Part shown: in pieces, positions 2,302 to 40,310 of the stretch
Numbering within the stretch: the stretch's first letter is position 1
Layout of the letters: each line of letters opens with the position of its first letter
Virus record (IMG/VR): IMGVR_UViG_3300043496_000020
Coordinates: 1-40,310 of that record
Strand: one strand, 5' to 3'
Source: a virus
DNA: 40,310 bases
Made by a program: the position numbers and the translations under genes
Notes under the pieces: model-generated
Told to the model about the DNA's origin: nothing
Seen by the model: the letters and a program-made list of their open reading frames with translations, nothing else
Database searches by the model: none

Positions 2302-4679
2302 TGGCGACCGACTACGAGATCACCAAGCCAGCGGTCGACGCCCCACCGTCCGACATGGGCAAGCCCGACCAGCAGCCCCAGGAAAACGACCCCTATGCCG
2401 GTGTCGACGGTGTCGACAAAGCCTACTGGATCAGTTGCCTGGACGACGCCGAGCGCACCGAGAAGGAGTGGCGCGCCAGGGGCCGCGAGATCATCCAGAT
2501 CTACCGCAACGAGACCAGTGCCGGGAAATCCAAGAAGGCCGGCGGTGAGACGACATTCAATATTCTGTACTCGAACACCGAGGTGATGGCAGGGGCGATC
2601 TACCAGCACCCCGCCAAGCCACTGGTGCGGTCGCGCTTCACCAGCGTCGAGAAGATGACGCCGATGCCGCCGCCGATGCCGATGGGCATGCCTGGGATGA
2701 TGGCGCCACCGCCAGGGATGCCGCCGATCGGCGCCTTGCCCGGTGGTCCGCCTCCCGGCATGCCGCCCCTGGGTGCGGAGCCAGCAGCCCCGCCGCCGAT
2801 GGGGCCGCCGCCGATGGGTATGCCCCTAAGCCCGCCCATCGGCGGCCCAGGAATGCCGCCTGAGGGTGGCATGGGAGGACCGCTGGGCGACCTTGGAGGC
2901 GCGACGGCGCCGATGATGGGTGCACCCAGCGGTCCACCGCCGTTTATGATGGGTCAGCTCCCGGCCGGCCCGAGCAAGCCGCTGCAAAGCGACATCGAGA
3001 CCGCCGCCAGCGTCATGCAGAAGGCGCTCGAGGTCGTGCAGGAGGACGATGCGTCGTCCGAGGCGATCAAGATGGCGATCAAGGACGTTTTGCTCCCAGG
3101 CAGAGGTCTGTGCCGCGTCCGCTGGAAGCCGCAGATGGAGAAGCGGCCGAAAAAGCCCGAGCCTGGGGAAGGCCCCGAGCTCGGCGCCGAGCCGATCGCC
3201 GGCATGGGCGACAACGGCGGCCCGCCGATGGAGGACGTGAAGGTCTGGGAGGAGACCACCGACGAATACGTCTATTGGGAGGACTTCCTCTGCGATGCGA
3301 CCCGCGCCGCGTCCGACATGGACTGGATCGCGTTCCGGCATCTGTTCACCAAGGAACAGACCGAACAGGAGTTCGCGGGCTCGCCGCAATACGACAAGAT
3401 GAAGAGCGAGAACCGGCTCGGCGAGCTGTTCCGATGGACCGACGAATCGGCCGCCAAGGCGCCTGTCGGCGGCGGGCCGGCACTGAAGAGCGCGAGCAAG
3501 CTCGGCGACCACGTCAAGAAGATGATGGCGTGGGAGATCTGGAGCCGCGTCAGCCGCGAGGTGATCTGGTTCGTGCGCGACGCCGGTGGCGTCGTCATGC
3601 GCGTCGACCCCGACGCCTACCAGCTCACCGGCTTCTATCCGACGCCGATGCCGATACTCGCGGTGACGACCACCGACACCAGGATTCCGCGCCCCTACTA
3701 TGATCTCTACGCCAAGCTGGCCGGCGATCTCGACGAGACCAGCGCCCGCATCAGCGCCCTGACCAAGAAGATCAAGGCGCGCGGCGCCTACAATTCGGCG
3801 AGCCGCGACATCGCCGATCTGCTGACCGCCGACGACGGTAAAATGATCCCGGTCGACGGCGTCGACATGCTCAACGGCGGCCTCCAGAACCACATCTGGA
3901 TGGTGCCGATCGAGATCTATGTGCAGGCGCTCCAGCAGCTCTACATGGCACGCGATCAGATCAAGCAGGCGATCTACGAGATCATGGGCATCTCGGACAT
4001 CATGCGCGGCGCCACCAGGGCGACCGAGACGGCGACGGCGCAGCGCATCAAGGGCTCGATGGGCATGTCGCGCCTGGAGGATCAGAAGGCAGCGGCCGCA
4101 AATTTCGCGCGCGATCTCCTGCGCATCAAGGCCGAGATCATCTGCAAGAATTTCGACGCCGAAACGCTCAGCCAGATGACCGGCGAGGACATCACCCCCA
4201 GCGTGATGGCGATCCTGCGCTCCGACTTCATGCGGATCTGCGCGATCGACATCGAGACCGATTCCACTGTCGTGCCGGATCTCCAGGCCGAGCAGCAAGG
4301 CATCGCGATGGTCATGCAGGCCGTGCAGATGGTCATGCAGGGCATCCAGGGCATGCTGATGACCGGCCTGATGCCGCCACAGCAAACCATCCAGCTCGGG
4401 CTCGAGCTGCTCAAGATGAGCCTGCACCCGGTGCCGTACAGCCGCGGCGTCGTGCAGCTCATCAACGACTTCCAGGCTCAGGTGAAGGCGATGCCGCAAG
4501 GCATGCCGATGGTGCCGCCGCCGCCGCCAGGGCCGCCGCCGCCGCAGGGCGCCGGCGCACCGCCGAACAAGCCGGGGGTTCCCGGCGTCGGGCCGCCGCC
4601 AGGGCGGCCGAACATCCCGCCGTCGGGCGTTTCCCGCTCCAATGGCGGTCCTCCACCCGCACCGCAAATGAACATCTGA
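2298..4679 (+). CDS. Portal (podovirus-type head-to-tail connector) with two Pro/Gly/Met-rich low-complexity segments
   Basis: 793 aa, ATGA-coupled directly after terL. Size, position and general sequence character fit a portal. Low-complexity segments are at nt 2655-2975 and 4491-4676. Confidence 0.75.
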   Translation: MMATDYEITKPAVDAPPSDMGKPDQQPQENDPYAGVDGVDKAYWISCLDDAERTEKEWRARGREIIQIYRNETSAGKSKKAGGETTFNILYSNTEVMAGAIYQHPAKPLVRSRFTSVEKMTPMPPPMPMGMPGMMAPPPGMPPIGALPGGPPPGMPPLGAEPAAPPPMGPPPMGMPLSPPIGGPGMPPEGGMGGPLGDLGGATAPMMGAPSGPPPFMMGQLPAGPSKPLQSDIETAASVMQKALEVVQEDDASSEAIKMAIKDVLLPGRGLCRVRWKPQMEKRPKKPEPGEGPELGAEPIAGMGDNGGPPMEDVKVWEETTDEYVYWEDFLCDATRAASDMDWIAFRHLFTKEQTEQEFAGSPQYDKMKSENRLGELFRWTDESAAKAPVGGGPALKSASKLGDHVKKMMAWEIWSRVSREVIWFVRDAGGVVMRVDPDAYQLTGFYPTPMPILAVTTTDTRIPRPYYDLYAKLAGDLDETSARISALTKKIKARGAYNSASRDIADLLTADDGKMIPVDGVDMLNGGLQNHIWMVPIEIYVQALQQLYMARDQIKQAIYEIMGISDIMRGATRATETATAQRIKGSMGMSRLEDQKAAAANFARDLLRIKAEIICKNFDAETLSQMTGEDITPSVMAILRSDFMRICAIDIETDSTVVPDLQAEQQGIAMVMQAVQMVMQGIQGMLMTGLMPPQQTIQLGLELLKMSLHPVPYSRGVVQLINDFQAQVKAMPQGMPMVPPPPPGPPPPQGAGAPPNKPGVPGVGPPPGRPNIPPSGVSRSNGGPPPAPQMNI

Positions 4680-7938: not shown

Positions 7939-8919
7939 ATGCCCGAGCCAATTGCTGGCATCACCAATCTGGTGACGACTACCATCAACAACTACCACAA
8001 GGAGTTCGCCGACAACGTCACGAACTCCAATGCGCTCACCGCCCTGCTCAAGATGAACGGCAGGACGCGCGTCGTCGAAGGCGGCAAGGTCATCAGCACG
8101 CCGCTCACCTACGCGGAGGAAACCTTCGCTTGGTACACCGGCACGGATCTCCTGAGCCGCGCCCTGAAGGAGACCATCTCCGAGGCGGACTATTCCCCCG
8201 CCAACGCGGTCGCCTCGCTCACCCTGGACGGCCCCACCCTCGCCAAGAACCGCTCGCGTGAACGCATCCTCAACTTGCTTGAGGGAAAAATGACGAACGC
8301 CGAGAACACGATGTCGAACAACGTCACGAAGGCTGTCTATGGCGACGGCACCGTGGCCAAATCGTTCGTCGGACTGAAGGCGATGGTGTCACCGACTGGC
8401 GGTGGCATCGTCGGCGGCATCGACAGCGGCACCTGGACGTTCTGGAAGAACCAGACCCAGGACGTGGTCCGCGCTACCGGCCTGCAATATCCGGCCCTCA
8501 AGGCCGCGATGAACGCGCTGTGGCTGAAGCTGACCCGCGGCACCGAGCATCCCGACCTGATCACCGCCGACGGCGAGGTCTATTCGACCTACGAGAGCGG
8601 GCTCCAGGAAAATCAGCGCTATGCCGACGCCAAGCTCGGCAGCCTGGGTTTCGAGACGCTGAAATACAAGCAGGCGGCGATCGTCTACGACAGCCCTGCA
8701 ACCGGGCTCGGCTCGGCGCCCGCGACCAACCCCGGCGCCTTCTATCTCAACACCAAATACCTCAAGTTCGAGATCTATAGCGGCTACAATTTCGAGCAGC
8801 TCGATCTCCCCGAAAAGACCCCCGACATGGACGCCATCACCCGGCATATCGGGTTCATGGGAACGCTCACCCTGGCCAATCGTGCGCTCCAGGGCCGGCT
8901 GACGCTGTCGGGCGCCTGA
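7939..8919 (+). CDS. Major capsid protein
   Basis: 326 aa with RBS aggag. It follows the scaffold gene and is followed by a strong terminator, the usual layout for high capsid expression. Confidence 0.75.
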   Translation: MPEPIAGITNLVTTTINNYHKEFADNVTNSNALTALLKMNGRTRVVEGGKVISTPLTYAEETFAWYTGTDLLSRALKETISEADYSPANAVASLTLDGPTLAKNRSRERILNLLEGKMTNAENTMSNNVTKAVYGDGTVAKSFVGLKAMVSPTGGGIVGGIDSGTWTFWKNQTQDVVRATGLQYPALKAAMNALWLKLTRGTEHPDLITADGEVYSTYESGLQENQRYADAKLGSLGFETLKYKQAAIVYDSPATGLGSAPATNPGAFYLNTKYLKFEIYSGYNFEQLDLPEKTPDMDAITRHIGFMGTLTLANRALQGRLTLSGA

Positions 8920-13507: not shown

Positions 13508-13516
13508 GAGAGCAAG

Positions 13517-14074
13517 ATGGCTGGTCCTGTCGATTCAACCTTCATGCAGAAGACCGGGCTGTTCCAGGTGCCGAAAGAGCTGTCGGTGCACCCTGGCGTG
13601 GCTAACACCGCCGCCTGGACCGACGCGCAGAGGACCGCCAAAGGCCGTTGGGAGATCCCGGTCACGCCGCCAGGGGCGACGGAAGCCATTGGCCGTCTGT
13701 GGGCGACGCCACCGCCGCCACCGCCGCCCAGGGTGCAACTGGCCAATGTCATCAACGGCGGCGGCAACAGCACAAACGGCATTTACTACCCAGGCGGCGG
13801 CAACAGTGCCTGGAGCGAAGGCGGCAGGAACGGCGGCGGCTGGGGTGGCGGCGGCAATGGCGGCAACAGCCGAGGCACCTTTGGCAATCCTGGTGCAGGC
13901 GGCACCAGCAACCCCGGCTGGGGCAACGGCGGATGGGGCAGCTCCACTGGCGGTGGATGGGGCCGCATCGGCGAAGCCTTGGGCCTGGGCGGCTCCAGCA
14001 ATGGCGGCGGCAGGGGCGGTGGTTGGGGCAGCGCCAGCGAGGGTGGCATGGGCGGGAGGGGCAGCTTCTTCTGA
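13517..14074 (+). CDS. Gly/Trp/Asn-rich low-complexity protein (185 aa)
   Basis: RBS aggag. GGC/AAC/AGC codon usage supports this frame, and it is TGATG-coupled to the next gene. Repeated GGWG / GWGNGGWG motifs follow a PPPPPPP tract. Confidence 0.6.
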   Translation: MAGPVDSTFMQKTGLFQVPKELSVHPGVANTAAWTDAQRTAKGRWEIPVTPPGATEAIGRLWATPPPPPPPRVQLANVINGGGNSTNGIYYPGGGNSAWSEGGRNGGGWGGGGNGGNSRGTFGNPGAGGTSNPGWGNGGWGSSTGGGWGRIGEALGLGGSSNGGGRGGGWGSASEGGMGGRGSFF

Positions 14075-21475: not shown

Positions 21476-22482
21476 GCACGACCACTGCCTTGATCTTCGT
21501 CAACCCGATCGAGCCGGCGCCGCTGTCGCTGCGCGTGCCGTCGGGCGTCGAGACGCGCCTCGAGCTGTCGTTCTTCGACCAGCTCGGCGACGCCATCAAC
21601 ACCGATCTCCTGGCACAGCTCGAGCTGACCGCCCGATCGAGCGGTGCGGTGGCACTGTATGCCGTGCCGACCACAGACGTGGTCAATGGCCGCGCCAGGG
21701 CGATCCTGCCGCCCTACAGCGTGACGGACGGCAACGGCTACATCCTGCGCCTCTACGGCACCGTGAAGCAGCAACTGATGCTGTTGGCGACCGGCGTCGT
21801 CGATGTCACCCCGGCGATCGGGCCGACCAGTGCGCCGGTCGACGTGATCGATTCCATCGATCTCACCTTCACCCGCGACCAGGACGCCGTACTCAACATC
21901 GCCATCTGGGTCGACGCCACCGGCACGATCGAGGCCAGCATCGGCACATCGACGATATCGGCGGTCGTGCAGGACAGCCAGGGTGGCGGCATCCTGGCGC
22001 GCTTCACCGTCACGCCGGTCGACGACAACGAGGTGCAACTGACGCTGCCTGCCGCCACGGTCAACACGCTGCCCGATGTCTGTTGGTGGTCGATGGCGGC
22101 GTCGAGCTCGGCGGGCATGCAGACGCTGGCCGAGGGCCGCGTCTTCGTCAGCGGCACGATCGAGCTGCCGCTGCCGGTGACGATCGACAACTGGGAGTAT
22201 TTGAAGCCGGCGACCAACGACAACCCGACGATCGGCCAGATCGTTCACCCCAGCATCGCGCAGGGAACGCTGAAGATCTCGACGCAGTCGCAGCCTGGAA
22301 CCGACCAGACGGCACTGCTCACGGATCTCGAGGCAGGCGACCGCATCACCATCGGCGCCACCACCTGGGCGGTGCGCTTCACGCTCTACAATCCGCTCGG
22401 TTGGTTCGAGGTCGTCATTGCGCCGGTCGCCCAGGACGCCGTGACCGGCATCACCCCGGTGAAGTTCGAGCCGCCAGCATGA
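21472..22482 (+). CDS. Tail-associated protein of unknown function (336 aa)
   Basis: Track ORF, ATGA-coupled on both sides between the two fibre genes. Confidence 0.5.
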   Translation: MSTTTALIFVNPIEPAPLSLRVPSGVETRLELSFFDQLGDAINTDLLAQLELTARSSGAVALYAVPTTDVVNGRARAILPPYSVTDGNGYILRLYGTVKQQLMLLATGVVDVTPAIGPTSAPVDVIDSIDLTFTRDQDAVLNIAIWVDATGTIEASIGTSTISAVVQDSQGGGILARFTVTPVDDNEVQLTLPAATVNTLPDVCWWSMAASSSAGMQTLAEGRVFVSGTIELPLPVTIDNWEYLKPATNDNPTIGQIVHPSIAQGTLKISTQSQPGTDQTALLTDLEAGDRITIGATTWAVRFTLYNPLGWFEVVIAPVAQDAVTGITPVKFEPPA

Positions 22483-24458
22483 CCAAGGTCACTGTCACCC
22501 ACCCAGGCACTACGGTCGTCAAAGATGTCGTCGCACTGACGCGGCAGCCGATGTCACCCCCTGGCGGTCTGCCGCCCAATGTCGGGCTGGTCGCCATCAG
22601 CCAGTCGATGCCCACAGAGCTGATCCCAGGGCCGCCAGGGCCGAGGGGGCCGGTCGGGCCGGCCGGCGCCGACAGCACTGTGCCAGGGCCTCAGGGGCCG
22701 CAGGGCGAGACCGGCGAGACGGGTGCCGACAGCACGGTGCCAGGGCCGCAGGGGCCGACCGGCGCCACCGGCGCCACCGGCGCCACCGGGCCGGCCAGCA
22801 CGGTGCCAGGACCGCCAGGAGCACAAGGGCCGCAAGGTCTGAAGGGCGACACCGGCGACACCGGGCCGAAAGGCGACAAGGGTGACAAGGGCGACACCGG
22901 GGCCAGCGGCGCCAGTGCCTGGACGGACATCACCGGCAAGCCGGCGACGTTCCCGCCAGATCCGCACCAGCACCCCTTCACCGCGATCACCGGCACCCTG
23001 ACCGACGCCCAGCACGGGCTGCGCGGCAATCTCGGCATGCATGCGCTGGCGACGACATCGGTGCCGGGTTTCATGCTCGACGCCACCAACGACGGCAAGC
23101 CTTACGTCCGCAAGTCAGCGGCTTGGTACGACCTGACCGCCGACCTCGCCGGGAAGGTCGACAAGGCTGGCGACACCATGACCGGCGCGCTGGCCATCGC
23201 GCCCCCGACAGGCACGCCGCGCCTCGATCTGAGGTCGACCGCCGCCGTTGGCACGCTGATCTACATGGACAAGGCTGGCGGCAGCAACGACATCTATGGC
23301 GCGCATGCGGGCAAGTCCCGCTGGATCGTGCGGCTGGGCGACAGCGCCGCCGAGAGCGGCGGCGACGCTGGCACCAATTTCTACATCTACAAGTACGCCG
23401 ACGACGGCTCCACCGTGTCGACGGCGCTGTATATCAATCGCTCCAATCTGGCGGCGACGTTCGGCGGCGTCGCGATCTATGTCGGAAAGCTGGCCCTCGC
23501 CGCCAACGCCAGCATCTACAACACCACCGCCAATGACGCAGTCCAGCTATCGGGCGGCAACGGCACCAGCGTCGGAGCCTCGCTCGCCCTATTCGGCGCG
23601 ACGCACGCCACACTGCCCAACCGCGCCTATTTCGACGCCGCCATACACTATTGGAGGAGCGAAGGCGCGGCTGGCACCGTACTGCAATATACCCCCTCCA
23701 GCGGGTATCTGGTCGGGGCTGTCATGGTCACCGCTAGTGCGTTCACCTCGACGGGCAACAACTACTACGGGTCGGCGACGGCGTGGGCGGCAGGCCCGAA
23801 CGGCAACGGCACCGTCTACCTCCGCAACAACATCGGCGTCGGCACCGGGCTGACCCTGACGGCGAGCGTTATCGACTGGAGCAACGTGCTGCTTCAGGTC
23901 AACAACGCCCCGGCGGCGGGCGTGAACGGTGTCGCTTTGAACACCTATTACCTCAGGACATCGAACGCCCTCACCGCGTCTACCGCTTCTGCCGTCTTTA
24001 TGAACAACAACGGCCAAGTCGGCAGCATTACCACCAATGCCTCTGCGACCACGTTCAACACCACCTCCGACGAGACGCTGAAGGAGTTCAGGTCCAACTA
24101 CGATCCGCAGGAAGCCATCGCCATCATCCGCGCCGACCCGGTGCTTGGCTTCACATGGAAGGCGACCGGCGAGGAGGCCATCGGCTGGTTCGCGCAGCGC
24201 TCCTACGCGGTCGATCCGAACCTCGCGTCGCCGCCCGACATGAACTTGCCGGTCGGCAGGAGCATCGAGCGCCTCGACGACACCAGCATCGAGCCGAAGG
24301 TCACGGACATGCCTCCCGATCCGCAGTTGTGGGGCATCGACTACGGCAGGCGCACGCCGTACCTTTGGGCAGCTCTGACGTGGGCGCTCGACGAGATCGA
24401 GATCCTCAAGGAGCAGATGCAGACGCTCCTCGACCCAACCGCAAGGAAAGCACCATGA
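22479..24458 (+). CDS. Collagen-like tail fibre with a C-terminal S74-type chaperone domain
   Basis: Gly-X-Y repeats span roughly nt 22626-22917 (GPPGPRGPVGPAG...GDKGDKGDTGASG). The C-terminus reads TSDETLKEF...DPVLGFTWK...IGWFAQ. This is an internal ATG in track ORF 22083..24458. Confidence 0.8.
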   Translation: MTKVTVTHPGTTVVKDVVALTRQPMSPPGGLPPNVGLVAISQSMPTELIPGPPGPRGPVGPAGADSTVPGPQGPQGETGETGADSTVPGPQGPTGATGATGATGPASTVPGPPGAQGPQGLKGDTGDTGPKGDKGDKGDTGASGASAWTDITGKPATFPPDPHQHPFTAITGTLTDAQHGLRGNLGMHALATTSVPGFMLDATNDGKPYVRKSAAWYDLTADLAGKVDKAGDTMTGALAIAPPTGTPRLDLRSTAAVGTLIYMDKAGGSNDIYGAHAGKSRWIVRLGDSAAESGGDAGTNFYIYKYADDGSTVSTALYINRSNLAATFGGVAIYVGKLALAANASIYNTTANDAVQLSGGNGTSVGASLALFGATHATLPNRAYFDAAIHYWRSEGAAGTVLQYTPSSGYLVGAVMVTASAFTSTGNNYYGSATAWAAGPNGNGTVYLRNNIGVGTGLTLTASVIDWSNVLLQVNNAPAAGVNGVALNTYYLRTSNALTASTASAVFMNNNGQVGSITTNASATTFNTTSDETLKEFRSNYDPQEAIAIIRADPVLGFTWKATGEEAIGWFAQRSYAVDPNLASPPDMNLPVGRSIERLDDTSIEPKVTDMPPDPQLWGIDYGRRTPYLWAALTWALDEIEILKEQMQTLLDPTARKAP

Positions 24459-24655
24459 ACACCCAGGAATTCATCGACAAGAATCTGCGACTGGCGCTCG
24501 GCAACATGCACGTCGAGCTGATCCTGGCGCAGGCGAGGATCACCGAGCTCGAGGCACTGCTAGCAGAAGCCGCCCAGGCTCAGCAGGAAACAGCGCCGGC
24601 GCTCAACGGCAGCGGCAAGCCGAACGGCAAGCGGCCGGCCGATGCGCCCGCATAA
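24455..24655 (+). CDS. Small coiled-coil protein (66 aa)
   Basis: ATGA coupling to the fibre gene. Product is MNTQEFIDKNLRLALGNMHVELILAQARITELEALL.... Confidence 0.5.
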   Translation: MNTQEFIDKNLRLALGNMHVELILAQARITELEALLAEAAQAQQETAPALNGSGKPNGKRPADAPA

Positions 24656-25628: not shown

Positions 25629-25831
25629 ATTGTTGCGCGAAAGCGGCTCCAAACGACAGATTATTAGTAGGCTCTAAATCGGCCAGGGAAAGGCGCCAGT
25701 TCGGTTGCAAAAGGCCCGTGGTGCATTTCACCTGGGAGGCTCCGAAACGCTGTACGGTGCCTCCCTGGCCTGGGAAACCGCTAGAAATTTATACCCTGCA
25801 CGCCATAGCCCGCAAGATGTTCAGCCCCATG

Positions 25832-25843
25832 CACTGTACAGTG
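25832..25843. promoter_or_regulatory. Perfect 12-bp palindrome CACTGTACAGTG in the lysis/replication intergenic region
   Basis: Seen in sequence; function unknown. Confidence 0.3.
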
Positions 25844-25912
25844 GCAGCATAGATGCAGCCGTCAAAACCGCAGGAAACGTGGGTTCCGCAATGTCGAAAT
25901 TCGGCATTAGAG

Positions 25913-25929
25913 TGTTGCCAGTGGCAACG
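25913..25929. promoter_or_regulatory. Operator-type palindrome TGTTGCC-AGT-GGCAACG (site 1 of 4)
   Basis: Perfect inverted half-sites GTTGCC/GGCAAC with a 3-nt spacer. The same motif occurs at 36677 and 38243 and, with one mismatch, at 36198. Confidence 0.6.
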
Positions 25930-26005
25930 GCACAGTAGAGAAAAGCACATCCAACCAGTATTCGCCTTGCAACCCAGCCGCAGCCGACACAACCCCAGAT
26001 AGGGA

Positions 26006-26035
26006 TTGACAGCGGCAACACCGGAATCGTAGCGT
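26006..26035 (+). promoter_or_regulatory. Sigma70-type promoter for the replication operon; predicted transcript start at or next to the rusA ATG (leaderless)
   Basis: TTGACA (26006-26011), an 18-nt spacer, then TAGCGT (26030-26035). ATG 26041 lies 5 nt after the -10 element, and there is no Shine-Dalgarno sequence. Confidence 0.45.
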
Positions 26036-26040
26036 CAGGC

Positions 26041-26466
26041 ATGCTTTTGCACCTCACACTCCTGGGCCAGCCGGTCGCCAAGGGCCGCGTCCGTTTCGCG
26101 CGCAAGACCGGCCATGCCTTCACGCCTGAGCGCACCGTCAACTACGAAAGCAAGCTGGCGCTCCTGGCGCAGGACAAGATGGCGGGCCGAGCTCCGTTCG
26201 AAGGGCCACTGGCGGTCGATGTCGTCGCCCTGATGAAGATCCCCGAGAGCTGGTCGAAGCGGAAACAGGAGCAGGCACGCATCGGCGAACTGATGCCGAC
26301 CGGGCGCCCAGATCTCGACAACTACGCCAAGATCCTCGATGCGCTCAATCTGGTCTGCTGGGTCGACGACAGCCAGATCGTCGAGCTGCACGTCTACAAG
26401 CGCTTTGCCGACCAACCGCAATTCACTGTCACCATCAGCAGACCGGGGGGTGGCTTTTTCGATTGA
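26041..26466 (+). CDS. rusA: RusA-family Holliday junction resolvase
   Basis: LLGQPVAKGRVRF...GRPDLDNYAKILDALN...DDSQIVEL matches the RusA pattern (catalytic Asp cluster D-x-D-N and DD). Confidence 0.8.
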   Translation: MLLHLTLLGQPVAKGRVRFARKTGHAFTPERTVNYESKLALLAQDKMAGRAPFEGPLAVDVVALMKIPESWSKRKQEQARIGELMPTGRPDLDNYAKILDALNLVCWVDDSQIVELHVYKRFADQPQFTVTISRPGGGFFD

Positions 26467-33888: not shown

Positions 33889-35916
33889 ATGAACGTATCG
33901 CCTGACCGTGAGTTCGGCAACCATTCCCACAACCACCAAGTCGCGCTCGACCTAGCGGCGCACGGCGTGCGCGTCTTTCCCTGCCGGCCCGCCGATGGAC
34001 CGCCAGACAATGACGGGCATCCGAAATGGCGGGCCAAGCAGCCGATGCCGCGCGTCAAGTGGACGGTGCAGGCGACCACCGACCCGCTGATCATCAATGC
34101 ATGGTGGTTCGCAACGCCCGACGCCCTGGTCGGTATGCCGCTCGAGCCGCTCGGCATCCTCATTCTCGATCCAGACCAGCACCCTGGCGCGCCCGACGGC
34201 ATCGCCGCCTACAACGCCCTGGCGGTCAAGTATCCCGAGCTGCTCAACGCGCCCTACGTGCAGACGCCGCAGGGCAAGCACTATCTGTTCGAGCAGACCG
34301 TGCCGCCGCACGGCAACGGCGAAGGCACGTTGCCACCGGGCATCAACGTGCGCGGCAAGGGCGGCTATGTGATCGCCCCAGGCACCATATTGCCCGACGG
34401 TCGCGGGTGGGTGATGCACAATCCGAACGGCGACGCGCCGAGGCAGCTCCCGCTGGCCATCATCGACATGCTCAGAGGCGCCCAGCCGCAGCCAGATCCC
34501 GACCCCGAGACATTCAAGCAAGCAGCCTGGGACTTCGACGATCTCACGCTCCCCTCAGAACCGCGCCGCGCCGCCTACCTGATGGCGTCCTGCCGCAACG
34601 CCTATGACAAGATCTGCAACGCCAAGCCCGGCACCCGCAACAACACGCTCAACACGCAGGCGGTGAAGCTGGGTCACTTCATCGGCGCCGGTCTGTTGGT
34701 CGAGGCCGAGATCACCACCCTTTTGACCGAGGCAGCCATCCAGGTCGGCCTGGACGAAGCGGAGATCGGGCCGACCATCAGATCCGGTCTGGCCAAGGGC
34801 AAGTCAGAGCCCAACGATCCGATCGACGTGGCCAATGAGTTCTGGGACGGCGACATCCCAGATCCCGAGCCCGACGCCAAGCAACCCACCGACCGCGTCT
34901 GGAACGCCACCGATCTGTGGGACATCCCGAGATCCACGTTCCTGATCGACGGCATGATCCCCGACAATGCGCTCGGCCTGATGGTCGGCGAAACGCAGAC
35001 GTTCAAATCGTTTATCGCGCAGTCGATCGCGCTCGCCATCGCGGCCGGCCTCAAGGATTGGCAGGGCCACGCCATACGGGCGCCCCAGGGCGCGATCGTG
35101 CTCTACATCGCAGGCGAGGGCGGCATCGAAAGCGCAGCCCTCAGGATGCGTGCCTGGGCCACGCAGCACGGCCTCACACGCGACACCTTGGGCGATCGCT
35201 TCCACCTGATCCCCTGGTCAATCAATCTCCTGGACAAGAAGTCGGTGCAGCGCCTCATCAAAGCCTGCAACAGCATCGTCACCGACACATCCAAGCTCGC
35301 CCTCATCGTGATCGACACCATCAACACCGCAAGCACCGGCTCCGACGAAAATTCCTCCCAGGACATGGGCATCCTGTACACGGTGATGCGGCGCCTCGCG
35401 GCGATCTACACGACCGCCATCATGGGCGTTCACCACACCAACAAGCGCGGCGGCACGCGCGGCTCCAATCTCCTATCGCAAAACGCCGACTTCACCCTCT
35501 TTCTGAAGCGCACCATGTCGGCGTGGCCGACCATGAACGTCGAGCTCCAGATCACCAAGCTGAAGGACGCACCATCAGGCACCGAGGAGAAATACCATCT
35601 CGACTTAATCGCCCTGCCCGACGGCACCACCTCCCTGGCACCAAAGCGCATCGGCGCCGTCCAGGCCGAGCGCACCGAAACCGTCGCAGCAGGACGCCCG
35701 AGCTCGCGGGCCGACGCCATCCTCGACGTGCTCAGGCGGTCAGCGCACATCGACGGTGAGACGCCGACGGAGATCTGCAACATCCTGGACATCACGGAAG
35801 GCTGGGAAAAGCGGGCCGTCACCAAGTGCCTGCGCAGGCTGCTCGGCCAGGGCATTGTGATCCGCGACGGCAACAAGTGGACGATCGTGGACGATGGTGG
35901 CGGGTTTTTGGATTGA
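33889..35916 (+). CDS. Bifunctional Prim-Pol primase / P-loop (RepA/DnaB-like) helicase
   Basis: The N-terminal region AHGVRVFPCRP...ILILDPDQH...VQTPQGKHYLF...VRGKGGYVIAPG fits a Prim-Pol domain. The central P-loop is GLMVGETQTFKS, and IVIDT is Walker B-like. Confidence 0.8.
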   Translation: MNVSPDREFGNHSHNHQVALDLAAHGVRVFPCRPADGPPDNDGHPKWRAKQPMPRVKWTVQATTDPLIINAWWFATPDALVGMPLEPLGILILDPDQHPGAPDGIAAYNALAVKYPELLNAPYVQTPQGKHYLFEQTVPPHGNGEGTLPPGINVRGKGGYVIAPGTILPDGRGWVMHNPNGDAPRQLPLAIIDMLRGAQPQPDPDPETFKQAAWDFDDLTLPSEPRRAAYLMASCRNAYDKICNAKPGTRNNTLNTQAVKLGHFIGAGLLVEAEITTLLTEAAIQVGLDEAEIGPTIRSGLAKGKSEPNDPIDVANEFWDGDIPDPEPDAKQPTDRVWNATDLWDIPRSTFLIDGMIPDNALGLMVGETQTFKSFIAQSIALAIAAGLKDWQGHAIRAPQGAIVLYIAGEGGIESAALRMRAWATQHGLTRDTLGDRFHLIPWSINLLDKKSVQRLIKACNSIVTDTSKLALIVIDTINTASTGSDENSSQDMGILYTVMRRLAAIYTTAIMGVHHTNKRGGTRGSNLLSQNADFTLFLKRTMSAWPTMNVELQITKLKDAPSGTEEKYHLDLIALPDGTTSLAPKRIGAVQAERTETVAAGRPSSRADAILDVLRRSAHIDGETPTEICNILDITEGWEKRAVTKCLRRLLGQGIVIRDGNKWTIVDDGGGFLD

Positions 35917-36056
35917 AAAGGACCGAAAACCCGAAATGGGCCGAAATAGGCCGAAACCTATTTCGGTCACATGCAGGACGCGACGACAATGCCCGTGACC
36001 GAAATCCGAAACCCCCCCCTTAAGGGGGTTTCGGTCACGGGCATTTCGGTCCTTTT
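35916..36056. repeat. Array of nine CCGAAA/TTTCGG hexamers with nested inverted repeats; ends in a strong + strand terminator-like hairpin plus T-run
   Basis: CCGAAA occurs at 35923, 35931, 35941, 35951, 35999 and 36006, and TTTCGG at 35961, 36029 and 36044. The outer 13-bp inverted repeat pairs 35916-35928 with 36044-36056. A 10-bp hairpin pairs 35941-35950 with 35957-35966. A composite 22-bp stem pairs 35988-36016 with 36024-36045 and is followed by tcggtcctttt. Confidence 0.8.
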
Positions 36057-36081
36057 GGTCAAATGGAGAGTGAGATGGGCA

Positions 36082-36570
36082 ATGCGTGAGATCCGACTGT
36101 CACCAAAGCAGCAGGCGTTTGTGCAGGCGTTGATCAAAGGGGCGACCTATGCTGATGCATATCGCAAGGCAGGGTTCCCTGGCGGTCAATCACGTACTGT
36201 TGCCACTAGCAACGCATCAAGGATGCTCAAGACAGATGCCAACGTTCAAGGTGCGATGAGGGAAGCTCGCGAAGAGCTGCGCCAACGCTCGATGTTGGAG
36301 GCTTGCGACATCATCGAGATGCTCCGAGAGACGCGCGAAGTCGCCCAGGCGGCCGATCCTCCCCAGGCCAGCGCCGCCGTCGCCGCCGCGATGGGCATCG
36401 CTAAGCTATTGGGATTGCAGATAGATCGGTCGGAAGCGGTCATCATGCACAAGCCGGCGCCGCTGCCGACGACCCTGGTCGAGCTGTCCACGGCTGACTG
36501 GCAGCGGCAGTTTGATCCGACCATGAAGACGATCGACAGCCAGGAACCGAGGCCTGACTTCCTCGATTGA
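36082..36570 (+). CDS. terS: Terminase small subunit (Terminase_2/P27-like)
   Basis: MREIRLSPKQQAFVQALIKGATYADAYRKAGFPGGQSRTVATSNASRMLKTDANVQGAM matches the N-terminal HTH pattern of this terS family. This is an internal ATG in track ORF 35971..36570. Confidence 0.7.
   Translation: MREIRLSPKQQAFVQALIKGATYADAYRKAGFPGGQSRTVATSNASRMLKTDANVQGAMREAREELRQRSMLEACDIIEMLRETREVAQAADPPQASAAVAAAMGIAKLLGLQIDRSEAVIMHKPAPLPTTLVELSTADWQRQFDPTMKTIDSQEPRPDFLD
36198..36214. promoter_or_regulatory. Operator-like site TGTTGCC-ACT-AGCAACG (one mismatch) inside terS (site 2 of 4)
   Basis: 13 of the 14 specified positions of TGTTGCC-N3-GGCAACG match, including both flanking bases. Confidence 0.4.
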
Positions 36571-36604
36571 GTAGTGGGGCGGAACCCGTGTCCGCCATAC
36601 CTAT

Positions 36605-36636
36605 GAGCTAAGCGACTGATATTGCTTAGCTTTCTC
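36605..36636 (+). terminator. Terminator-like hairpin after terS
   Basis: agctaagc (36606-36613) pairs with gcttagct (36624-36631) around a 10-nt loop, followed by tttctc. Confidence 0.6.
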
Positions 36637-36650
36637 GATCGGTGTTTGGG

Positions 36651-36674
36651 CTGTCCCTACTTCTGTCCCTACTT
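36651..36674. repeat. Exact tandem duplication of the 12-mer ctgtccctactt
   Basis: Seen in sequence, immediately upstream of operator site 3. Each copy carries a -10-like TACTTT. Confidence 0.85.
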
Positions 36675-36676
36675 TG

Positions 36677-36693
36677 TGTTGCCGATGGCAACG
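36677..36693. promoter_or_regulatory. Operator-type palindrome TGTTGCC-GAT-GGCAACG (site 3 of 4)
   Basis: Perfect half-sites, located in the gene-free region downstream of terS. Confidence 0.6.
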
Positions 36694-36744
36694 TATCGGC
36701 AGGAGGATATGCCTATTGCTCAGTGAGCTGAAGGCTGCGCGGAT

Positions 36745-36769
36745 CTCGAGCTCGAGGCGCCGATCGGCG
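36745..36769. repeat. Two adjacent perfect 12-bp palindromes, CTCGAGCTCGAG and CGCCGATCGGCG, separated by one base
   Basis: Seen in sequence at 36745-36756 and 36758-36769. Confidence 0.85.
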
Positions 36770-36774
36770 GTCGA

Positions 36775-36842
36775 GGGCGGGCAGGGCAGGCAGGGGGCCG
36801 GCACCCACCCAGGGGGGTAGATCGACACCGGGGGCGGCCGGG
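36775..36842 (+). other. G-tract block with G-quadruplex potential on the + strand
   Basis: GGG at 36775, GGG at 36779, GGG at 36784 and GGGGG at 36793 fit G3-N1-G3-N2-G3-N6-G5. Further G4-G6 runs occur at 36812, 36830 and 36839. Confidence 0.5.
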
Positions 36843-37036
36843 GCGAAAGAGGCTCCCTGACGCGCGACACGGATCACAGCCAGGGAATTTACAATGGCAA
36901 CCCCGCCTGAGCCCCGACACGCCTACATGCTTGCAAAACAGATGAGCCGCCCGCCTGGAGGGGCTGGGCGGCTCCACCGCACGTCGCTGAGCGGTGTTTA
37001 GGGAGATGAGCAGACTTGGTGTTCGCCCGCGACAAC

Positions 37037-37071
37037 GTCTGCCGCAGAGGCAGGCTCTGCCAGACCCTTTT
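37037..37071 (+). terminator. Terminator-like hairpin with T-run in + orientation, abutting the stop of the leftward operon (convergent terminator)
   Basis: gtctg..gcagag pairs with ctctgc.cagac (11 bp with a 2-nt bulge) around a gcagg loop, followed by cctttt. Confidence 0.5.
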
Positions 37072-37282
37072 AACTCCCTGGCGGTCGCATCAGCTCTTGC
37101 ACGATGCGGGCCTTCTCCTTGGCCAGCAGGCGGTCGACCTGAGCTTTCAGCTCGCCGCACTGGGCCTCGAACCATTTCGCCTCCTGGCGCCAGGAATTGG
37201 CTGATCTGATCGCCTCGTCGCGCTGCCGCTCGGCGGCGAACTTGTCGGCCTGGAGCAGGCGCCACTCGCTGTCGGAGATCAC
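37070..37282 (-). CDS. Coiled-coil protein (70 aa), last gene of the leftward operon
   Basis: GTGA coupling at 37282. Product is VISDSEWRLLQADKFAAERQRDEAIRSANSWRQEAKWFEAQCGELKAQVDRLLAKEKARIVQELMRPPGS*. The Arg-rich N-terminal part of track ORF 37070..37426 is rejected. Confidence 0.5.
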   Translation of the reverse strand: MISDSEWRLLQADKFAAERQRDEAIRSANSWRQEAKWFEAQCGELKAQVDRLLAKEKARIVQELMRPPGS

Positions 37283-37440
37283 GGCAGGCGCCAGAGGAAG
37301 AGAGGGGTTCCATCGCCCGCCCAGGCGCACAATGTGGGGAGCTGGCCGCACCGCTCGGCGACGCCGATGATGGCGTCGTCGAAGCCGTCGGCGAGCAGTG
37401 CGTCGGGATTGAGGTCGGCGATCCACTGGCGGTCGGTCAA
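37279..37440 (-). CDS. Small protein (53 aa) with a GFDDAIIGV motif; possibly an internally deleted member of a larger family
   Basis: Not in the track (under 60 aa). The TTG start overlaps the upstream stop. Product is LTDRQWIADLNPDALLADGFDDAIIGVAERCGQLPTLCAWAGDGTPLFLWRLP*, with high third-position GC. Confidence 0.4.
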   Translation of the reverse strand: MTDRQWIADLNPDALLADGFDDAIIGVAERCGQLPTLCAWAGDGTPLFLWRLP

Positions 37441-37742
37441 TGTCGAATCCTTCTGGCGACGAGCAGCCGCTCGACTTGCGTCTTCAGCTCGTCGCGCTGC
37501 CTGCGAAGCTCTACGGCATCGGCGGCATCTCGCTCGACAAACTCCTTGAAGAATTTGTGCGCCTGTTCGTGGACCTGGACCTCCGCTGCCATGCGAAGGT
37601 CGCGCTCGCGGTCGTGCATCAGCCGCAGCCGGTCGAGTTCATTGAACACCGCCTGGAGGCCGTCGACCGAGATGAACACGTTCGCATGGTCTCGGCGCTT
37701 CTCCAGATGGGCGCGCAGCCGCTCGATGGGGTCGTCGGTCAT
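37437..37742 (-). CDS. Coiled-coil protein (101 aa)
   Basis: Track ORF with ATGA coupling. Its C-terminal ELKTQVERLLVARR echoes ELKAQVDRLLAKEK of the 37070..37282 product. Confidence 0.55.
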   Translation of the reverse strand: MTDDPIERLRAHLEKRRDHANVFISVDGLQAVFNELDRLRLMHDRERDLRMAAEVQVHEQAHKFFKEFVERDAADAVELRRQRDELKTQVERLLVARRIRH

Positions 37743-38008
37743 ATGATCTCTTCCAGCGTTGACCTGAATTCAACGCCGCCCTTCGACCTGATCCAGTCGT
37801 AGGCGTCCCTCTCGGCACGCCCCCGCCCCGCTTCGATGCGGCGCTGGTCGATGAACTTGCCGTCGGCGTCGCGCGCCGTCACCAGCCAGACCCTCTTGGG
37901 CCAGACGGCACCCGTACCGTTGCACCAGTCGCACTCCTTCAACGGCACCGCGGTATCCTCGCCGGTGCCGTTGCAGCGCGGGCAGGGGCTGGGGAGGAGG
38001 GTGCTCAT
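37739..38008 (-). CDS. Zinc-finger protein with two CxxCxGxG motifs (DnaJ cysteine-rich type), 89 aa
   Basis: ATG at 38008 overlaps the stop of the HTH gene (ATGA). Product is MSTLLPSPCPRCNGTGEDTAVPLKECDWCNGTGAVW.... Confidence 0.6.
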   Translation of the reverse strand: MSTLLPSPCPRCNGTGEDTAVPLKECDWCNGTGAVWPKRVWLVTARDADGKFIDQRRIEAGRGRAERDAYDWIRSKGGVEFRSTLEEII

Positions 38009-38193
38009 TCCAGGAACTCTTGCTGGCGTTTGCCCTCGAGCAGCTCGAGCATCATCGCGATCGTGCCTGGAACCGGCCGGCGGCCGGCTTTCCAATGCAT
38101 CACGGCATAGCGCGAGACGCGGAACTGGGTGGCCGCGGCCGAGGTGGTCAGGCCGAGCGCTTTGAGGCGTTTCTTGAATTCATGCTTTGTCAT
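38005..38193 (-). CDS. Cro/CI (Xre)-type helix-turn-helix transcriptional regulator (62 aa)
   Basis: LGLTTSAAATQFRVSRYAVMHWKAGRRPVP is a typical HTH. It is the first gene of the leftward operon at a divergent promoter region that carries operator site 4. Confidence 0.75.
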   Translation of the reverse strand: MTKHEFKKRLKALGLTTSAAATQFRVSRYAVMHWKAGRRPVPGTIAMMLELLEGKRQQEFLE

Positions 38194-38200
38194 GGGGGGA

Positions 38201-38229
38201 AATGTAAGACGTTACCCTTGTCAACGCAA
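38201..38229 (-). promoter_or_regulatory. Candidate leftward promoter for the HTH operon (leaderless or near-leaderless)
   Basis: On the minus strand: TTGCGT (38229-38224), a 17-nt spacer, then TACATT (38206-38201). The ATG at 38193 lies 7 nt after the -10 element, and there is no Shine-Dalgarno sequence. Confidence 0.4.
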
Positions 38230-38246
38230 GGATCGGTGATTATGTT
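38218..38246 (+). promoter_or_regulatory. Candidate rightward early promoter
   Basis: TTGTCA (38218-38223), a 17-nt spacer, then TATGTT (38241-38246). The -10 element overlaps operator site 4. Confidence 0.55.
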
Positions 38247-38259
38247 GCCAGAGGCAACG
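38243..38259. promoter_or_regulatory. Operator-type palindrome TGTTGCC-AGA-GGCAACG (site 4 of 4)
   Basis: Perfect half-sites covering the -10/+1 region of the rightward promoter, next to the HTH gene. Confidence 0.65.
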
Positions 38260-38282
38260 ACGAGCCGCCGGGAGAGACTGAG

Positions 38283-38576
38283 ATGACCACCACCGAACTG
38301 TTCCAGACCTATCAGGCGGCGGAAGCTGCTTCTAACGCCGCGCACGAAGCGGATGCTCCTGACGCGATCGCGCTGGGCCAAGTGTCTGACCGTGCGTTTG
38401 CGGCTTGGCGGGCAGCGGTCGCCGAGGCTCGCACCATCTGGCAGTCGTTCCCGGCAGGCGCCCGCAAGTCGAGCGCCGAGACCAACGCCGAGGACACCGA
38501 GGGCTGTGCCGAGGATGAGCTGCGTTGGTTCGATATCGCTATCCGCACTTACGAAATGGACGATTGCACTCGCTAA
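38283..38576 (+). CDS. Acidic early protein (97 aa), first gene of the early operon
   Basis: RBS ggagag; track ORF. By hand count it has about 18 Asp/Glu versus about 8 Arg/Lys. Confidence 0.6.
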   Translation: MTTTELFQTYQAAEAASNAAHEADAPDAIALGQVSDRAFAAWRAAVAEARTIWQSFPAGARKSSAETNAEDTEGCAEDELRWFDIAIRTYEMDDCTR

Positions 38577-38590
38577 AAGGAGAGACCGAG

Positions 38591-38854
38591 ATGACCAACT
38601 ACGTCGCCACCAAATACCGCTTCGCCGATGGCGTCGCCTACCGCCCGAATTTGTATCTCATCCAGACCGAGGAGCGCATCCGCTCTTACGGCGGTCTGGT
38701 CGTCTTGAAGGACAAGGCCCTGGCCTATGCCGGTTCGCCGACGCTCATCCAGGAGAAGATCGGTTCCATCATCGCGTCGGCTGACGCCTATGCCTGGGGC
38801 AGCACCCCGGCCGAGGCACTGGCCAAGATCAAGCCGCACCTGGGAGCACGCTGA
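38591..38854 (+). CDS. Hypothetical early protein (87 aa)
   Basis: RBS aaggagag before ATG 38591. This is an internal start in track ORF 38525..38854. Confidence 0.6.
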   Translation: MTNYVATKYRFADGVAYRPNLYLIQTEERIRSYGGLVVLKDKALAYAGSPTLIQEKIGSIIASADAYAWGSTPAEALAKIKPHLGAR

Positions 38855-39078
38855 TGCGTGTTCACGAAGATCCTCGCACCATCACCGTGTGGGACAAGAG
38901 CAAGTGCGTCGCCACCGCTCGCCAAACCGGGCGCGGCTGGTTGCTCAGGCTGCACGCCGCTTCCTGGGTCAATAAGAAGACCCGTGGCGTCGGCAACGAT
39001 CCTTCGCTGAAGGTCGTGCAAAACCGCAAGATCGCGCTGCATGAGATGAAGCTCCTGGCAGGAGGAAAAGAACCATGA
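38854..39078 (+). CDS. Hypothetical early protein (74 aa)
   Basis: Track ORF with TGATG coupling. Confidence 0.55.
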   Translation: MRVHEDPRTITVWDKSKCVATARQTGRGWLLRLHAASWVNKKTRGVGNDPSLKVVQNRKIALHEMKLLAGGKEP

Positions 39079-39212
39079 ACGACACCGTCAACAGGCTACT
39101 CGACGAGCTGGCGATCGTCCTGCTCGCGCTGATCGAGGGCCGCATCACCGAGGCGGCCTATGAGGCCGAGGTCGTGCGGCTGCTCGACGCCATCGAGGCT
39201 GCCCGCGACTAA
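39075..39212 (+). CDS. Small helical protein (45 aa)
   Basis: Not in the track. ATGA coupling. Product is MNDTVNRLLDELAIVLLALIEGRITEAAYEAEVVRLLDAIEAARD*. Confidence 0.45.
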   Translation: MNDTVNRLLDELAIVLLALIEGRITEAAYEAEVVRLLDAIEAARD

Positions 39213-39287
39213 GATCGAAACCAGGGTCCGATCCCCTGGTAGCGGCGTAAGGCGCCGCCTGATGAGATCAGCAACAGGAGAACGACA

Positions 39288-40283
39288 ATGAATAAGGGCA
39301 TTTCCTTGCAGGCACTGGCCGCCGAGATCGAGCGCCAGGACGACGCCAAGCACGACATGATCGCCGACACCGGCGCCGTGACCATGCACGACATGGAGGG
39401 CGCTTTCTCCCTGGCGGTCGCCGATGAGGATTTCGGCATCAACCAGACCGCCCACAGCCAGATCGCGGCTCGCCTGGGCATCCCGCTCAAATACTACGAT
39501 CGCATGCAGGCCGAGGCGCCTTCGATGCTGTCGTACAACGTCAATGAGTGGTTTCGCAGGAAACCCGAGCGCCGCATGATCAGGACACTCGACGGCAACG
39601 TGCGGGCGTTCCTGAGCGATCGATATCAGCGCATCGACAACTGGGACATCAGCAAGGCGGCGCTGCCGGTCCTGGCCAAGATCCCCGAGCTCAAGATCGT
39701 CTCATCGCAGATCACCGAGCACCGCATGTACATCCAGGCGGTGACGGCGCGGCTGACCGAGAACGTCGCCCTGAACGACGCCGTGCAGGCCGGCGTCATC
39801 ATCTCCAACTCGGAGATCGGCATGGGCTCGGTGTCGGTCGCCCCGATCGTCTACCGTCTCAAATGCCTGAACGGCATGGTCATCGCCGATCAGAAATACC
39901 GGGCGATGCACGTCGGCCGCCGCATCGAAGACTCGGCCGAGCTGTGGGCCGACGATACCCGGCAGGCCGACGACCGGGCGGTGCTGCTGAAGGTCCGCGA
40001 CATGATCGCCAAGGCGGTCGATGCCGTGAACTTCCGCGAGAACGTCGAGCGCATGCAGGGTCTGGTGCGCGAGAGCGTCACCGGCAACCCGATCAAGGTG
40101 GTCGAGGTGCTGTCGAAGCGCCTGGGCATCACCGAGGCCGAGCAGGGCGGCATCCTGCGCTCGTTGATCGAGGGCGGCGACCTCTGTCGGCGTGGGGCGT
40201 GCTCAACGCGGTCACCGCCCAGGCCCACGGCGCCGAGTACGATCGTGCGGTCGAGTTCGAGGCGGCCGGCGGCCAGCTCCTGA
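39288..40283 (+). CDS. DUF932-family protein. The frame is credible up to 40181; the conserved C-terminus continues in another frame (40184 onward, equal to 1..144), so the gene is frameshifted as assembled.
   Basis: RBS aggag. LRTLDGNVRAFLSDRYQRIDNWD and GVIISNSEIGMGSVSVAPIVYRLKCLNGM are typical DUF932 blocks. After ...LIEGGDL the track frame becomes the Arg/Ser/Pro-rich CRRGACSTRSPP.... Confidence 0.8.
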   Translation: MNKGISLQALAAEIERQDDAKHDMIADTGAVTMHDMEGAFSLAVADEDFGINQTAHSQIAARLGIPLKYYDRMQAEAPSMLSYNVNEWFRRKPERRMIRTLDGNVRAFLSDRYQRIDNWDISKAALPVLAKIPELKIVSSQITEHRMYIQAVTARLTENVALNDAVQAGVIISNSEIGMGSVSVAPIVYRLKCLNGMVIADQKYRAMHVGRRIEDSAELWADDTRQADDRAVLLKVRDMIAKAVDAVNFRENVERMQGLVRESVTGNPIKVVEVLSKRLGITEAEQGGILRSLIEGGDLCRRGACSTRSPPRPTAPSTIVRSSSRRPAASS

Positions 40284-40310
40284 CGCTCGATCGCAAGGAA
40301 TGGTCGCGCA
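40184..40310. repeat. Terminal direct repeat, copy 2 of 2 (identical to 1..127)
   Basis: Exact 127-nt identity with the window start, read by eye. Confidence 0.95.

Follow-up and report, generated by a model that had tools for sequence, protein, structure and literature searches.

In this study, we propose that a 17-bp near-palindrome recurring in the genome of an uncultivated phage is probably the operator of a 62-aa HTH protein encoded by the phage itself, which would repress three promoters: the rightward early promoter P_R, the promoter P_L of the operon headed by the HTH gene, and the promoter P_rusA of the replication operon. The window, that is, the whole stretch of DNA analysed, is a phage contig of 40,310 nt; within it we infer the binder, the sign of the regulation, the promoters and their start points. 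What emerges is a testable regulatory map, comprising three promoters, six operator-like sites and one candidate regulator, for a clade of uncultivated podophages of about 40 kb that is only distantly related to the Brucella, Myxococcus Mx8 and Rhizobium phages.

The two ends of the contig share the same 127 bases (1-127 = 40184-40310), and it is therefore a circular assembly whose unit length is 40,183 bp. The genome has a GC content of 64%, carries nearly all of its genes on the + strand and is non-coding over 6.5% of its length. The genes for terL (814-2301, +), the portal (2298-4679, +) and the major head protein (7939-8919, +) are followed by tail and tail-fibre genes to position 24458 and then by small genes to 25628. 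The replication operon is opened by rusA (26041..26466, +; Pfam RusA E 3.6e-33, with PHROG matches) and continues with an SNF2 helicase, a PD-(D/E)XK exonuclease, a gp2.5-like SSB, DNA polymerase A, a primase-helicase and terS. After terS there are about 500 bp of non-coding DNA and then a short leftward operon, the first gene of which (38005..38193, - strand) encodes the 62-aa HTH regulator, our candidate binder. Rightward small genes and a DUF932 gene (39288-40283, +), which ends just ahead of the assembly junction, form a set that runs over this junction. The portal is less than 32% identical to those of Brucella, Mx8, Rhizobium and Bradyrhizobium podophages, and a megablast comparison with GenBank phages gave no nucleotide match. 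In the ORFs scanned we found no gene for an RNA polymerase, a sigma factor, an integrase, a recombinase or a partition protein (ParA), in agreement with the preliminary description of this DNA, which had seen no integrase.

A genome-wide pattern search allowing 0-2 mismatches recovered all four copies of the motif that had been reported earlier. The sequence TGTTGCC-N3-GGCAACG occurs exactly at 25913-25929, 36677-36693 and 38243-38259, and with one mismatch (TGTTGCCACTAGCAACG) at 36198-36214 within terS, all four giving the T...G reading on the + strand. Chance does not account for this recurrence, as the preliminary description had argued: from base composition, about 0.0005 exact and 0.022 one-mismatch copies are expected (P for at least three exact copies ~2.5e-11), and the nine matches at up to two mismatches compare with a mean of 0.47 in 100 dinucleotide shuffles, none of which reached nine. 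When only the 12-base core GTTGCC-N3-GGCAAC was searched at up to two mismatches, 11 matches were obtained against 2.4 expected, 5 of them within the non-coding 6.5% of the genome. This core search added two degenerate copies, at 26005-26019 (upstream of rusA) and 38211-38225 (P_R/P_L), both of which overlap the -35 of a sigma-70-like promoter. The system is thus larger than the four sites first proposed, with at least six, and the additional degenerate pair on the -35 elements is the most consistently conserved. Two further features of the earlier account need revision. Firstly, the copies do not occupy the only sizeable non-coding regions, since gaps of 180-370 bp are also present at 1-372, 580-813, 13508-13688, 24459-24641 and 38577-38853. 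Secondly, the T...G flank does not keep its asymmetry in the family, since among 31 sites position 17 is a G in 15 and an A in 11. The family consensus is the 17-bp near-palindrome TGTTGCCA-N-TGGCAAC-R, and with its T...G/A flank it corresponds across the family to the symmetric palindrome TGTTGCCA-N-TGGCAACA. A 24-mer spanning the copy at 38243 had no match in genome contigs or viral contigs.

Relatives were reached through homologues of the HTH protein, the helicase and the primase, and consist of metagenomic contigs representing about eight distinct phages. The HTH gene borders one and the same pair of sites, here designated O_R2 and O_R1, ahead of a divergent rightward operon in all eight related phages, while the flanking genes vary. 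These relatives form a shallow clade, and part of the conservation may therefore reflect shared ancestry. A primase search of IMG/VR yielded no further relatives, and neither did two conserved DNA patterns searched against IMG/VR, one of them also against GTDB genomes. Likewise, the HTH profile found no relatives in an IMG/VR scan or in 185,579 species genomes of bacteria and archaea (GTDB), and a metagenome scan returned only two short contigs, both of which lack the sites. The motif is absent from a distant relative, L019, whose helicase is 52% identical and whose portal is of the P22 type.

The region between the HTH gene and the rightward genes (38194-38282) contains two promoters and two candidate operators. 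P_R (38218..38246, +), found by promoter scan and with a -35 conserved in relatives, has the form TTGTCA-N17-TATGTT, with its -35 at 38218-38223, a 17-nt spacer and its -10 at 38241-38246; it is the sole sigma-70-like match in 35900-40310. Downstream lies a Shine-Dalgarno (SD) sequence, GGGAGAG, and then the ATG at 38283 of the first ORF of the rightward early operon (38283..38576, +), which has no family match and is not conserved among relatives. The exact copy in this region, the candidate operator O_R1 (38243..38259, +), overlaps the P_R -10 and the predicted +1, and the promoter scan and the adjoining ORF 38005-38193 bear out the earlier view that this copy sits on a rightward promoter and next to the gene of a small HTH protein. 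O_R1 is identical in contigs L002, L003 and L005; its left half, TGTTGCC, is invariant in all eight phages, and its right half reads GGCAAC, GGTAAC or GGCAC. O_R1 is retained even in L001, L015 and L023, whose -10 has shifted 2-3 nt away from it, and it is therefore not simply promoter sequence. Centred three helical turns (33 bp) upstream, the degenerate candidate operator O_R2 (CGTTACCCTTGTCAACG; 38210..38226, +), a core match with two mismatches, covers the P_R -35 together with the spacer and -35 of P_L, and an element TGTTnCC-nTT-GTCAAC occupies its position in seven relatives. P_L itself (TTGCGT-N17-TACATT; 38201..38229, - strand) is predicted from sequence only, by its conserved -10. 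In the window this -10, TACATT, lies 7 nt before the HTH ATG with no SD, and in all eight relatives a TAnnnT-like -10 (CAGATT in L001) is found 6-9 nt before the HTH ATG, again with no SD; L001 and L023 offer TTGACA as the P_L -35 at a spacing of 16-17. Because the conserved -10 sits so close to the ATG with no SD, the HTH mRNA from P_L is probably leaderless, and back-to-back promoters, as had been suggested for this region, are plausible.

The replication operon is preceded by a 412-bp non-coding gap (25629-26040), and the equivalent gap is found at 9157-9519 in L009, 9139-9516 in L010 and 1445-1907 in L020. Immediately upstream of rusA we recognize a putative promoter, P_rusA (TTGACA-N18-TAGCGT; 26006..26035, +), in which a -35 at 26006-26011, an 18-nt spacer and a -10 at 26030-26035 are followed after 5 nt by the rusA ATG, a distance so short that it implies a leaderless rusA mRNA. 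P_rusA does not reach the threshold of the consensus scan, and the promoter call rests on its conservation in the window and four relatives. The degenerate candidate operator O_rusA (GATTGACAGCGGCAACA; 26004..26020, +) has this -35 as its left half, and the arrangement TTGAC(A/G), 2 nt, then GGCAAC(A/G) is conserved in the window, L009, L010, L013 and L020. The -35 hexamer TTGACA is one base apart from the half-site TTGCCA and would therefore stand in for it, a neat example of a candidate operator half-site mimicking a -35 hexamer. An exact copy, site 1b (25913..25929, +), lies 91 bp upstream of O_rusA and has equivalents with 2-3 mismatches in L009, L010 and L020. Motif copies are present in the four relatives that have the gap, and a fifth relative has a copy in a short intergenic spacer. 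Each phage with the gap has at least one good copy, at differing positions: in L020 the exact copy stands at the start of the gap (1a) and the copy at 1b has three mismatches, in the window this order is reversed, and in L009 and L010 both positions are occupied by intermediate copies, a pattern that indicates turnover of sites between 1a and 1b. The gap as a whole is about 75% identical across phages whose proteins share only 64-75% identity, and GGnAAACCnCTAGAAnTTT, TGTACAGTGGCA, AGTAnAGAAAA and two CAACCC are among the blocks that do not vary; an sRNA, an origin and a regulatory leader are all conceivable roles for the gap. RNAalifold, applied to three sequences only, predicted for the gap a long-range helix in which a GGCARC block pairs with the left half of site 1b and one of the pairs is compensatory. 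Translation thus appears to begin on leaderless mRNAs at both 38193 (HTH) and 26041 (rusA), and the first gene under P_R has a normal SD.

The 62-aa protein is modelled with a lambda-repressor-like (Cro/CI/XRE-type) fold, more precisely an Aca2-like one. The AF2 model (pLDDT 94.9) has four helices, at residues 3-13, 17-24, 28-36 and 43-61, and its best Foldseek matches were to Aca2 (7ezy, 7vjo, 7b5j and 7vjq), with 30-36% identity over about 60 residues, TMq 0.83-0.89 and rmsd 1.0-1.3 A; TMt against Aca2 is only 0.44-0.48. Further matches were to C.Kpn2I, C.AhdI, C.BclI, HigA2, SinR, P22 C2 and 434 Cro, so that the model sustains the earlier call of a Cro/CI-type HTH. Of these neighbours, Aca2, the C proteins, HigA2, P22 C2 and 434 Cro are repressors that recognize inverted repeats in dimeric form. 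Foldseek probabilities were 1.0 and TMq values 0.66-0.9, with E-values of only 6e-3 to 0.17, which are modest because the HTH domain is short. Aca2 was also the best natural sequence match in a profile search of the PDB (E 0.005). PHROG families of transcriptional regulators and repressors matched weakly (E about 1e-5 to 3e-4), and no Pfam HTH family exceeded its gathering score, HTH_23 reaching 17.9 bits against a cut-off of 24.6. An exhaustive profile search collected about 800 representative clusters at E <= 1e-3, only two of them at E <= 1e-30, which places the protein on a minor branch of a stand-alone HTH family of modest size. In the related phages the homologues have 62-64 aa, are 60-71% identical and occupy the same position, and the helix VSR[YFH]A[VI]MHW[KR]AGRR is nearly invariant among them, in parallel with the left half-site of O_R1, which does not vary. 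Variants within the recognition helix (YAV/YAI, K/R) seemed at first, from L001/L009 and L015, to track the right half-site (GGCAAC versus GGCAC); this co-variation was refuted by L023, a V-type helix with GGCACC, and by L025, an I-type helix with GGCAAC.

That HTH and site do not co-vary at the level of specificity leaves some room for a different binder, in which case the palindrome would be the operator of a host transcription factor or of another phage protein and the adjacent HTH would recognize something else. Many small phage ORFs have no family assignment, and the half-site TTGCCA resembles a -35 hexamer, which also suits such a reading. We nevertheless consider it unlikely. Of the genes beside the sites, only the HTH gene is retained throughout the relatives, neither the zinc-finger gene nor the other neighbours being conserved, and no second DNA-binding domain was detected in the ORFs scanned. 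Moreover, for proteins of this class it is the rule that an autoregulatory site adjoins the gene of the binder (PMC6765145).

If the HTH protein is the binder, as we favour, the arrangement of the sites suggests how it might work. The regulator would act as a dimer on the 17-bp near-palindrome. O_R1 would be filled first, covering the -10 and start of P_R and turning the early genes off, and the weaker O_R2 would be filled at a higher protein level, limiting P_L in a negative autoregulation. At P_rusA the regulator would compete with sigma-70 region 4 at the -35-mimicking site and lower the expression of the replication genes, with the exact site 1b, 91 bp upstream, as an auxiliary site that perhaps helps. 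The copies in and after terS might serve as a roadblock, a looping partner or a decoy. Since no integrase or partition genes and no prophage relatives were found, the protein is likelier to serve a lytic phage as a temporal shut-off factor of the Cro/Aca kind than to be an immunity repressor, and a lytic lifestyle is weakly favoured.

The two copies linked to terS are less readily placed in this scheme. terS belongs to Terminase_2, and the long ORF spans 35971-36570; its true start is probably at 36082 (MREIRL..., as in all relatives) rather than 35971, and the one-mismatch copy (36198..36214, +) is inside the gene with either start, over the codons T-V-A-T-S-N-A of the terS HTH. All five relatives having terS retain this copy, with 1-3 mismatches, and the rare Val codon GTT (4.7% usage) within it is kept in all five phages with Val at this position, a hint of selection at the nucleotide level. 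This codon argument for a function of the copy is weakened by the low GC3 throughout the first third of terS (0.35-0.6, against about 0.8 in the remainder and 0.8-0.9 genome-wide), and the site may have been shaped by coding. The post-terS exact copy (36677..36693, +), 107 bp after the terS stop, has a counterpart in only one of five relatives: L015, where TGTTGCCATAGGCCACA stands in the same layout of hairpin, AT-palindrome, iteron and site. Thus, of the circuit first proposed, which linked early genes, replication operon, terS and the region after it, the promoter-associated sites of the early and replication operons hold up, while the post-terS copy is conserved in few relatives and the terS copy lies in coding sequence with generally odd codon usage, so that both are only tentative members.

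The region after terS has features of its own. Within 36571-36700 there are a hairpin (36578-36596), an AT-rich palindrome AGCTAAGC...GCTTAGCT (36606-36631) and two GTCCCTAC iterons, 12 bp apart (36653-36672), which the exact copy at 36677 abuts. L002 and L005 carry the iterons in the opposite orientation beside different palindromes such as TTGGCATGCATGCCAA. Further on, a GC-rich block GGCACCCACCCAGGGGGGTAGATCGACACC (36800-36829), with G-rich tracts on either side, is kept in all six phages covering the region, about 180-300 bp after terS, and is a candidate cos/pac site or genome end. The iterons, palindromes and GC-rich block may mark a pac or ori region, and a link of the regulator to packaging or replication initiation is possible. 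It could be, then, that the copies at 36198 and 36677 belong to a pac or replication-origin apparatus and that the promoter copies are a separate use of a similar sequence. The 36677 copy does lie against the iterons, palindrome and hairpin and near the shared GC-rich block, and the terS copy lies where the N-terminal part of a Terminase_2 terS is encoded, a stretch in which GC3 is abnormally low and rare T-ending codons are kept; in SPP1-type phages, pac elements are located in the N-terminal coding region of terS. However, the same 14 specified bases occur at the promoters, for which one binder is the simplest reading, and other sequences or palindromes stand after terS in L001, L002 and L005, with no counterpart found in L017. 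On balance, a separate packaging or origin role for these two copies seems to us distinctly improbable.

By analogy with Aca2/Aca1, the HTH protein might read the palindrome both as promoter DNA and as an RNA hairpin, some copies then being post-transcriptional control points or decoys; we see only a slim chance of this. Were it true, the + strand RNA targets would be the copies of terS, of its 3' region and of the leader gap before rusA, early-gene shut-off would be coupled to synthesis of the terminase small subunit and to packaging, and one tiny protein would run a genome-wide DNA/RNA regulon in a lytic phage.

The copies might, alternatively, act purely as nucleic-acid hairpins with a 7-bp stem and a 3-nt loop, as signals for RNA stability, processing or termination on the + strand or in single-stranded DNA. 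All four copies in the window do point the same way on the + strand, three of them in transcribed + strand regions, the flanking T...G could pair as U-G, and the predicted RNA energies are -5.5 to -8.2 kcal/mol. These energies are weak, however, and two of the four z-scores are unremarkable. No copy is followed by a U-tract, the terminator scan calls none, there is no Rfam match, and at P_R the predicted start falls inside the loop, which means that the hairpin would not be transcribed whole. The evolution of the sites speaks most directly to this question. Among 35 sites we counted 73 stem positions off the consensus, of which 68 were one-sided changes, 4 were changed on both sides and unpaired, and 1 was compensated, so that most changes break the pairing; furthermore, the alternation of G and A at position 17 restores DNA symmetry and does not follow a hairpin logic. 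Because stem changes are one-sided, with a single compensation in 73, and because sites turn over, a protein operator is favoured over a hairpin: the pattern fits a sequence-specific dimeric protein operator and speaks against an RNA or DNA structural element, leaving the hairpin reading very improbable indeed. A phage RNA polymerase promoter or a sigma-54 promoter was rejected, as the scans contained no RNA polymerase or sigma gene and the order of the motif is unlike GG-N10-GC.

Returning to the palindrome as an operator of the HTH protein, three known systems offer comparisons. Aca2 of the Pectobacterium phage ZF40 is a small phage HTH autorepressor associated with anti-CRISPR genes; its target is a strong early promoter, which it represses by way of two inverted repeats that differ in affinity and lie over the -35 and -10 (PMC6765145), and Aca proteins can control neighbouring operons as well (PMC13551039). 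The likeness to our protein lies in the N-terminal HTH domain, the best structural match to the 62-aa model. However, Aca2 has about 115-125 aa with a C-terminal dimerization domain, which is missing from the 62-aa phage protein, and its operators IR1 and IR2 have a TTCG core with N6/N8 spacing (PMC6765145), in contrast to the GTTGCCA-N-TGGCAAC found here. The Aca2 gene is located downstream of an acr gene, whereas the phage HTH gene is first in its operon, with no acr gene identified, and the sites in the present genome extend to the replication operon 12 kb away. We thus appear to be dealing with an Aca2-like HTH domain that lacks the dimerization domain, stands outside an acr operon and apparently controls both early and replication genes.

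With the CI/Cro switches of lambdoid phages the region may share divergent, close promoters (P_L being putative) and several 17-bp near-palindromic operators of graded quality, and the modelled fold is common to P22 C2, 434 Cro and the phage HTH. The leftward, apparently leaderless HTH message also recalls lambda cI, which is expressed from P_RM as a leaderless mRNA. In contrast to the lambdoid switches, which have a second, antagonistic repressor and three switch operators, we found a single HTH and two switch operators, with extra sites at the replication promoter; the protein lacks C-terminal domains for oligomerization or autocleavage, and the ORFs scanned contained neither an integrase nor a lysogeny module. 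The controller (C) proteins C.Kpn2I, C.AhdI and C.BclI are small lambda-repressor-like HTH dimers that match the model, and C proteins bind paired palindromic C-boxes at their own promoter and thereby time gene expression. Unlike the arrangement here, C-boxes act on a single promoter; they also differ in sequence, and there are no restriction-modification genes in this phage. By analogy, the way in which C proteins and Aca2 damp strong early promoters may resemble the mechanism we propose for the HTH protein. It is, in our view, a real but ordinary phage gene switch that leaves the concepts of phage regulation unchanged, of use for annotation and as a small synthetic-biology part made of a putative repressor and graded operators.

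The genes around the HTH gene differ from it in their distribution. The leftward small genes (37070-38008, - strand) include one for an 89-aa CxxC...CxxC zinc-finger protein at 37739-38008, and neither this gene, nor the other leftward small genes, nor the first rightward genes (38283-39212) are common to the relatives. It follows from these differences that they are mosaic accessory early genes, possibly an anti-defence set. In a whole-genome scan for direct repeats, the only repeats were collagen-like Gly-X-Y repeats with a 9-nt periodicity, at 22625-22900 in the tail-fibre gene 22479-24458. Finally, 3' of the DUF932 gene there is a terminator-like hairpin at 213-239, with a 12-bp stem, a 3-nt loop and a T-rich tail, which likely marks the end of the early rightward operon before the late genes that begin with terL.
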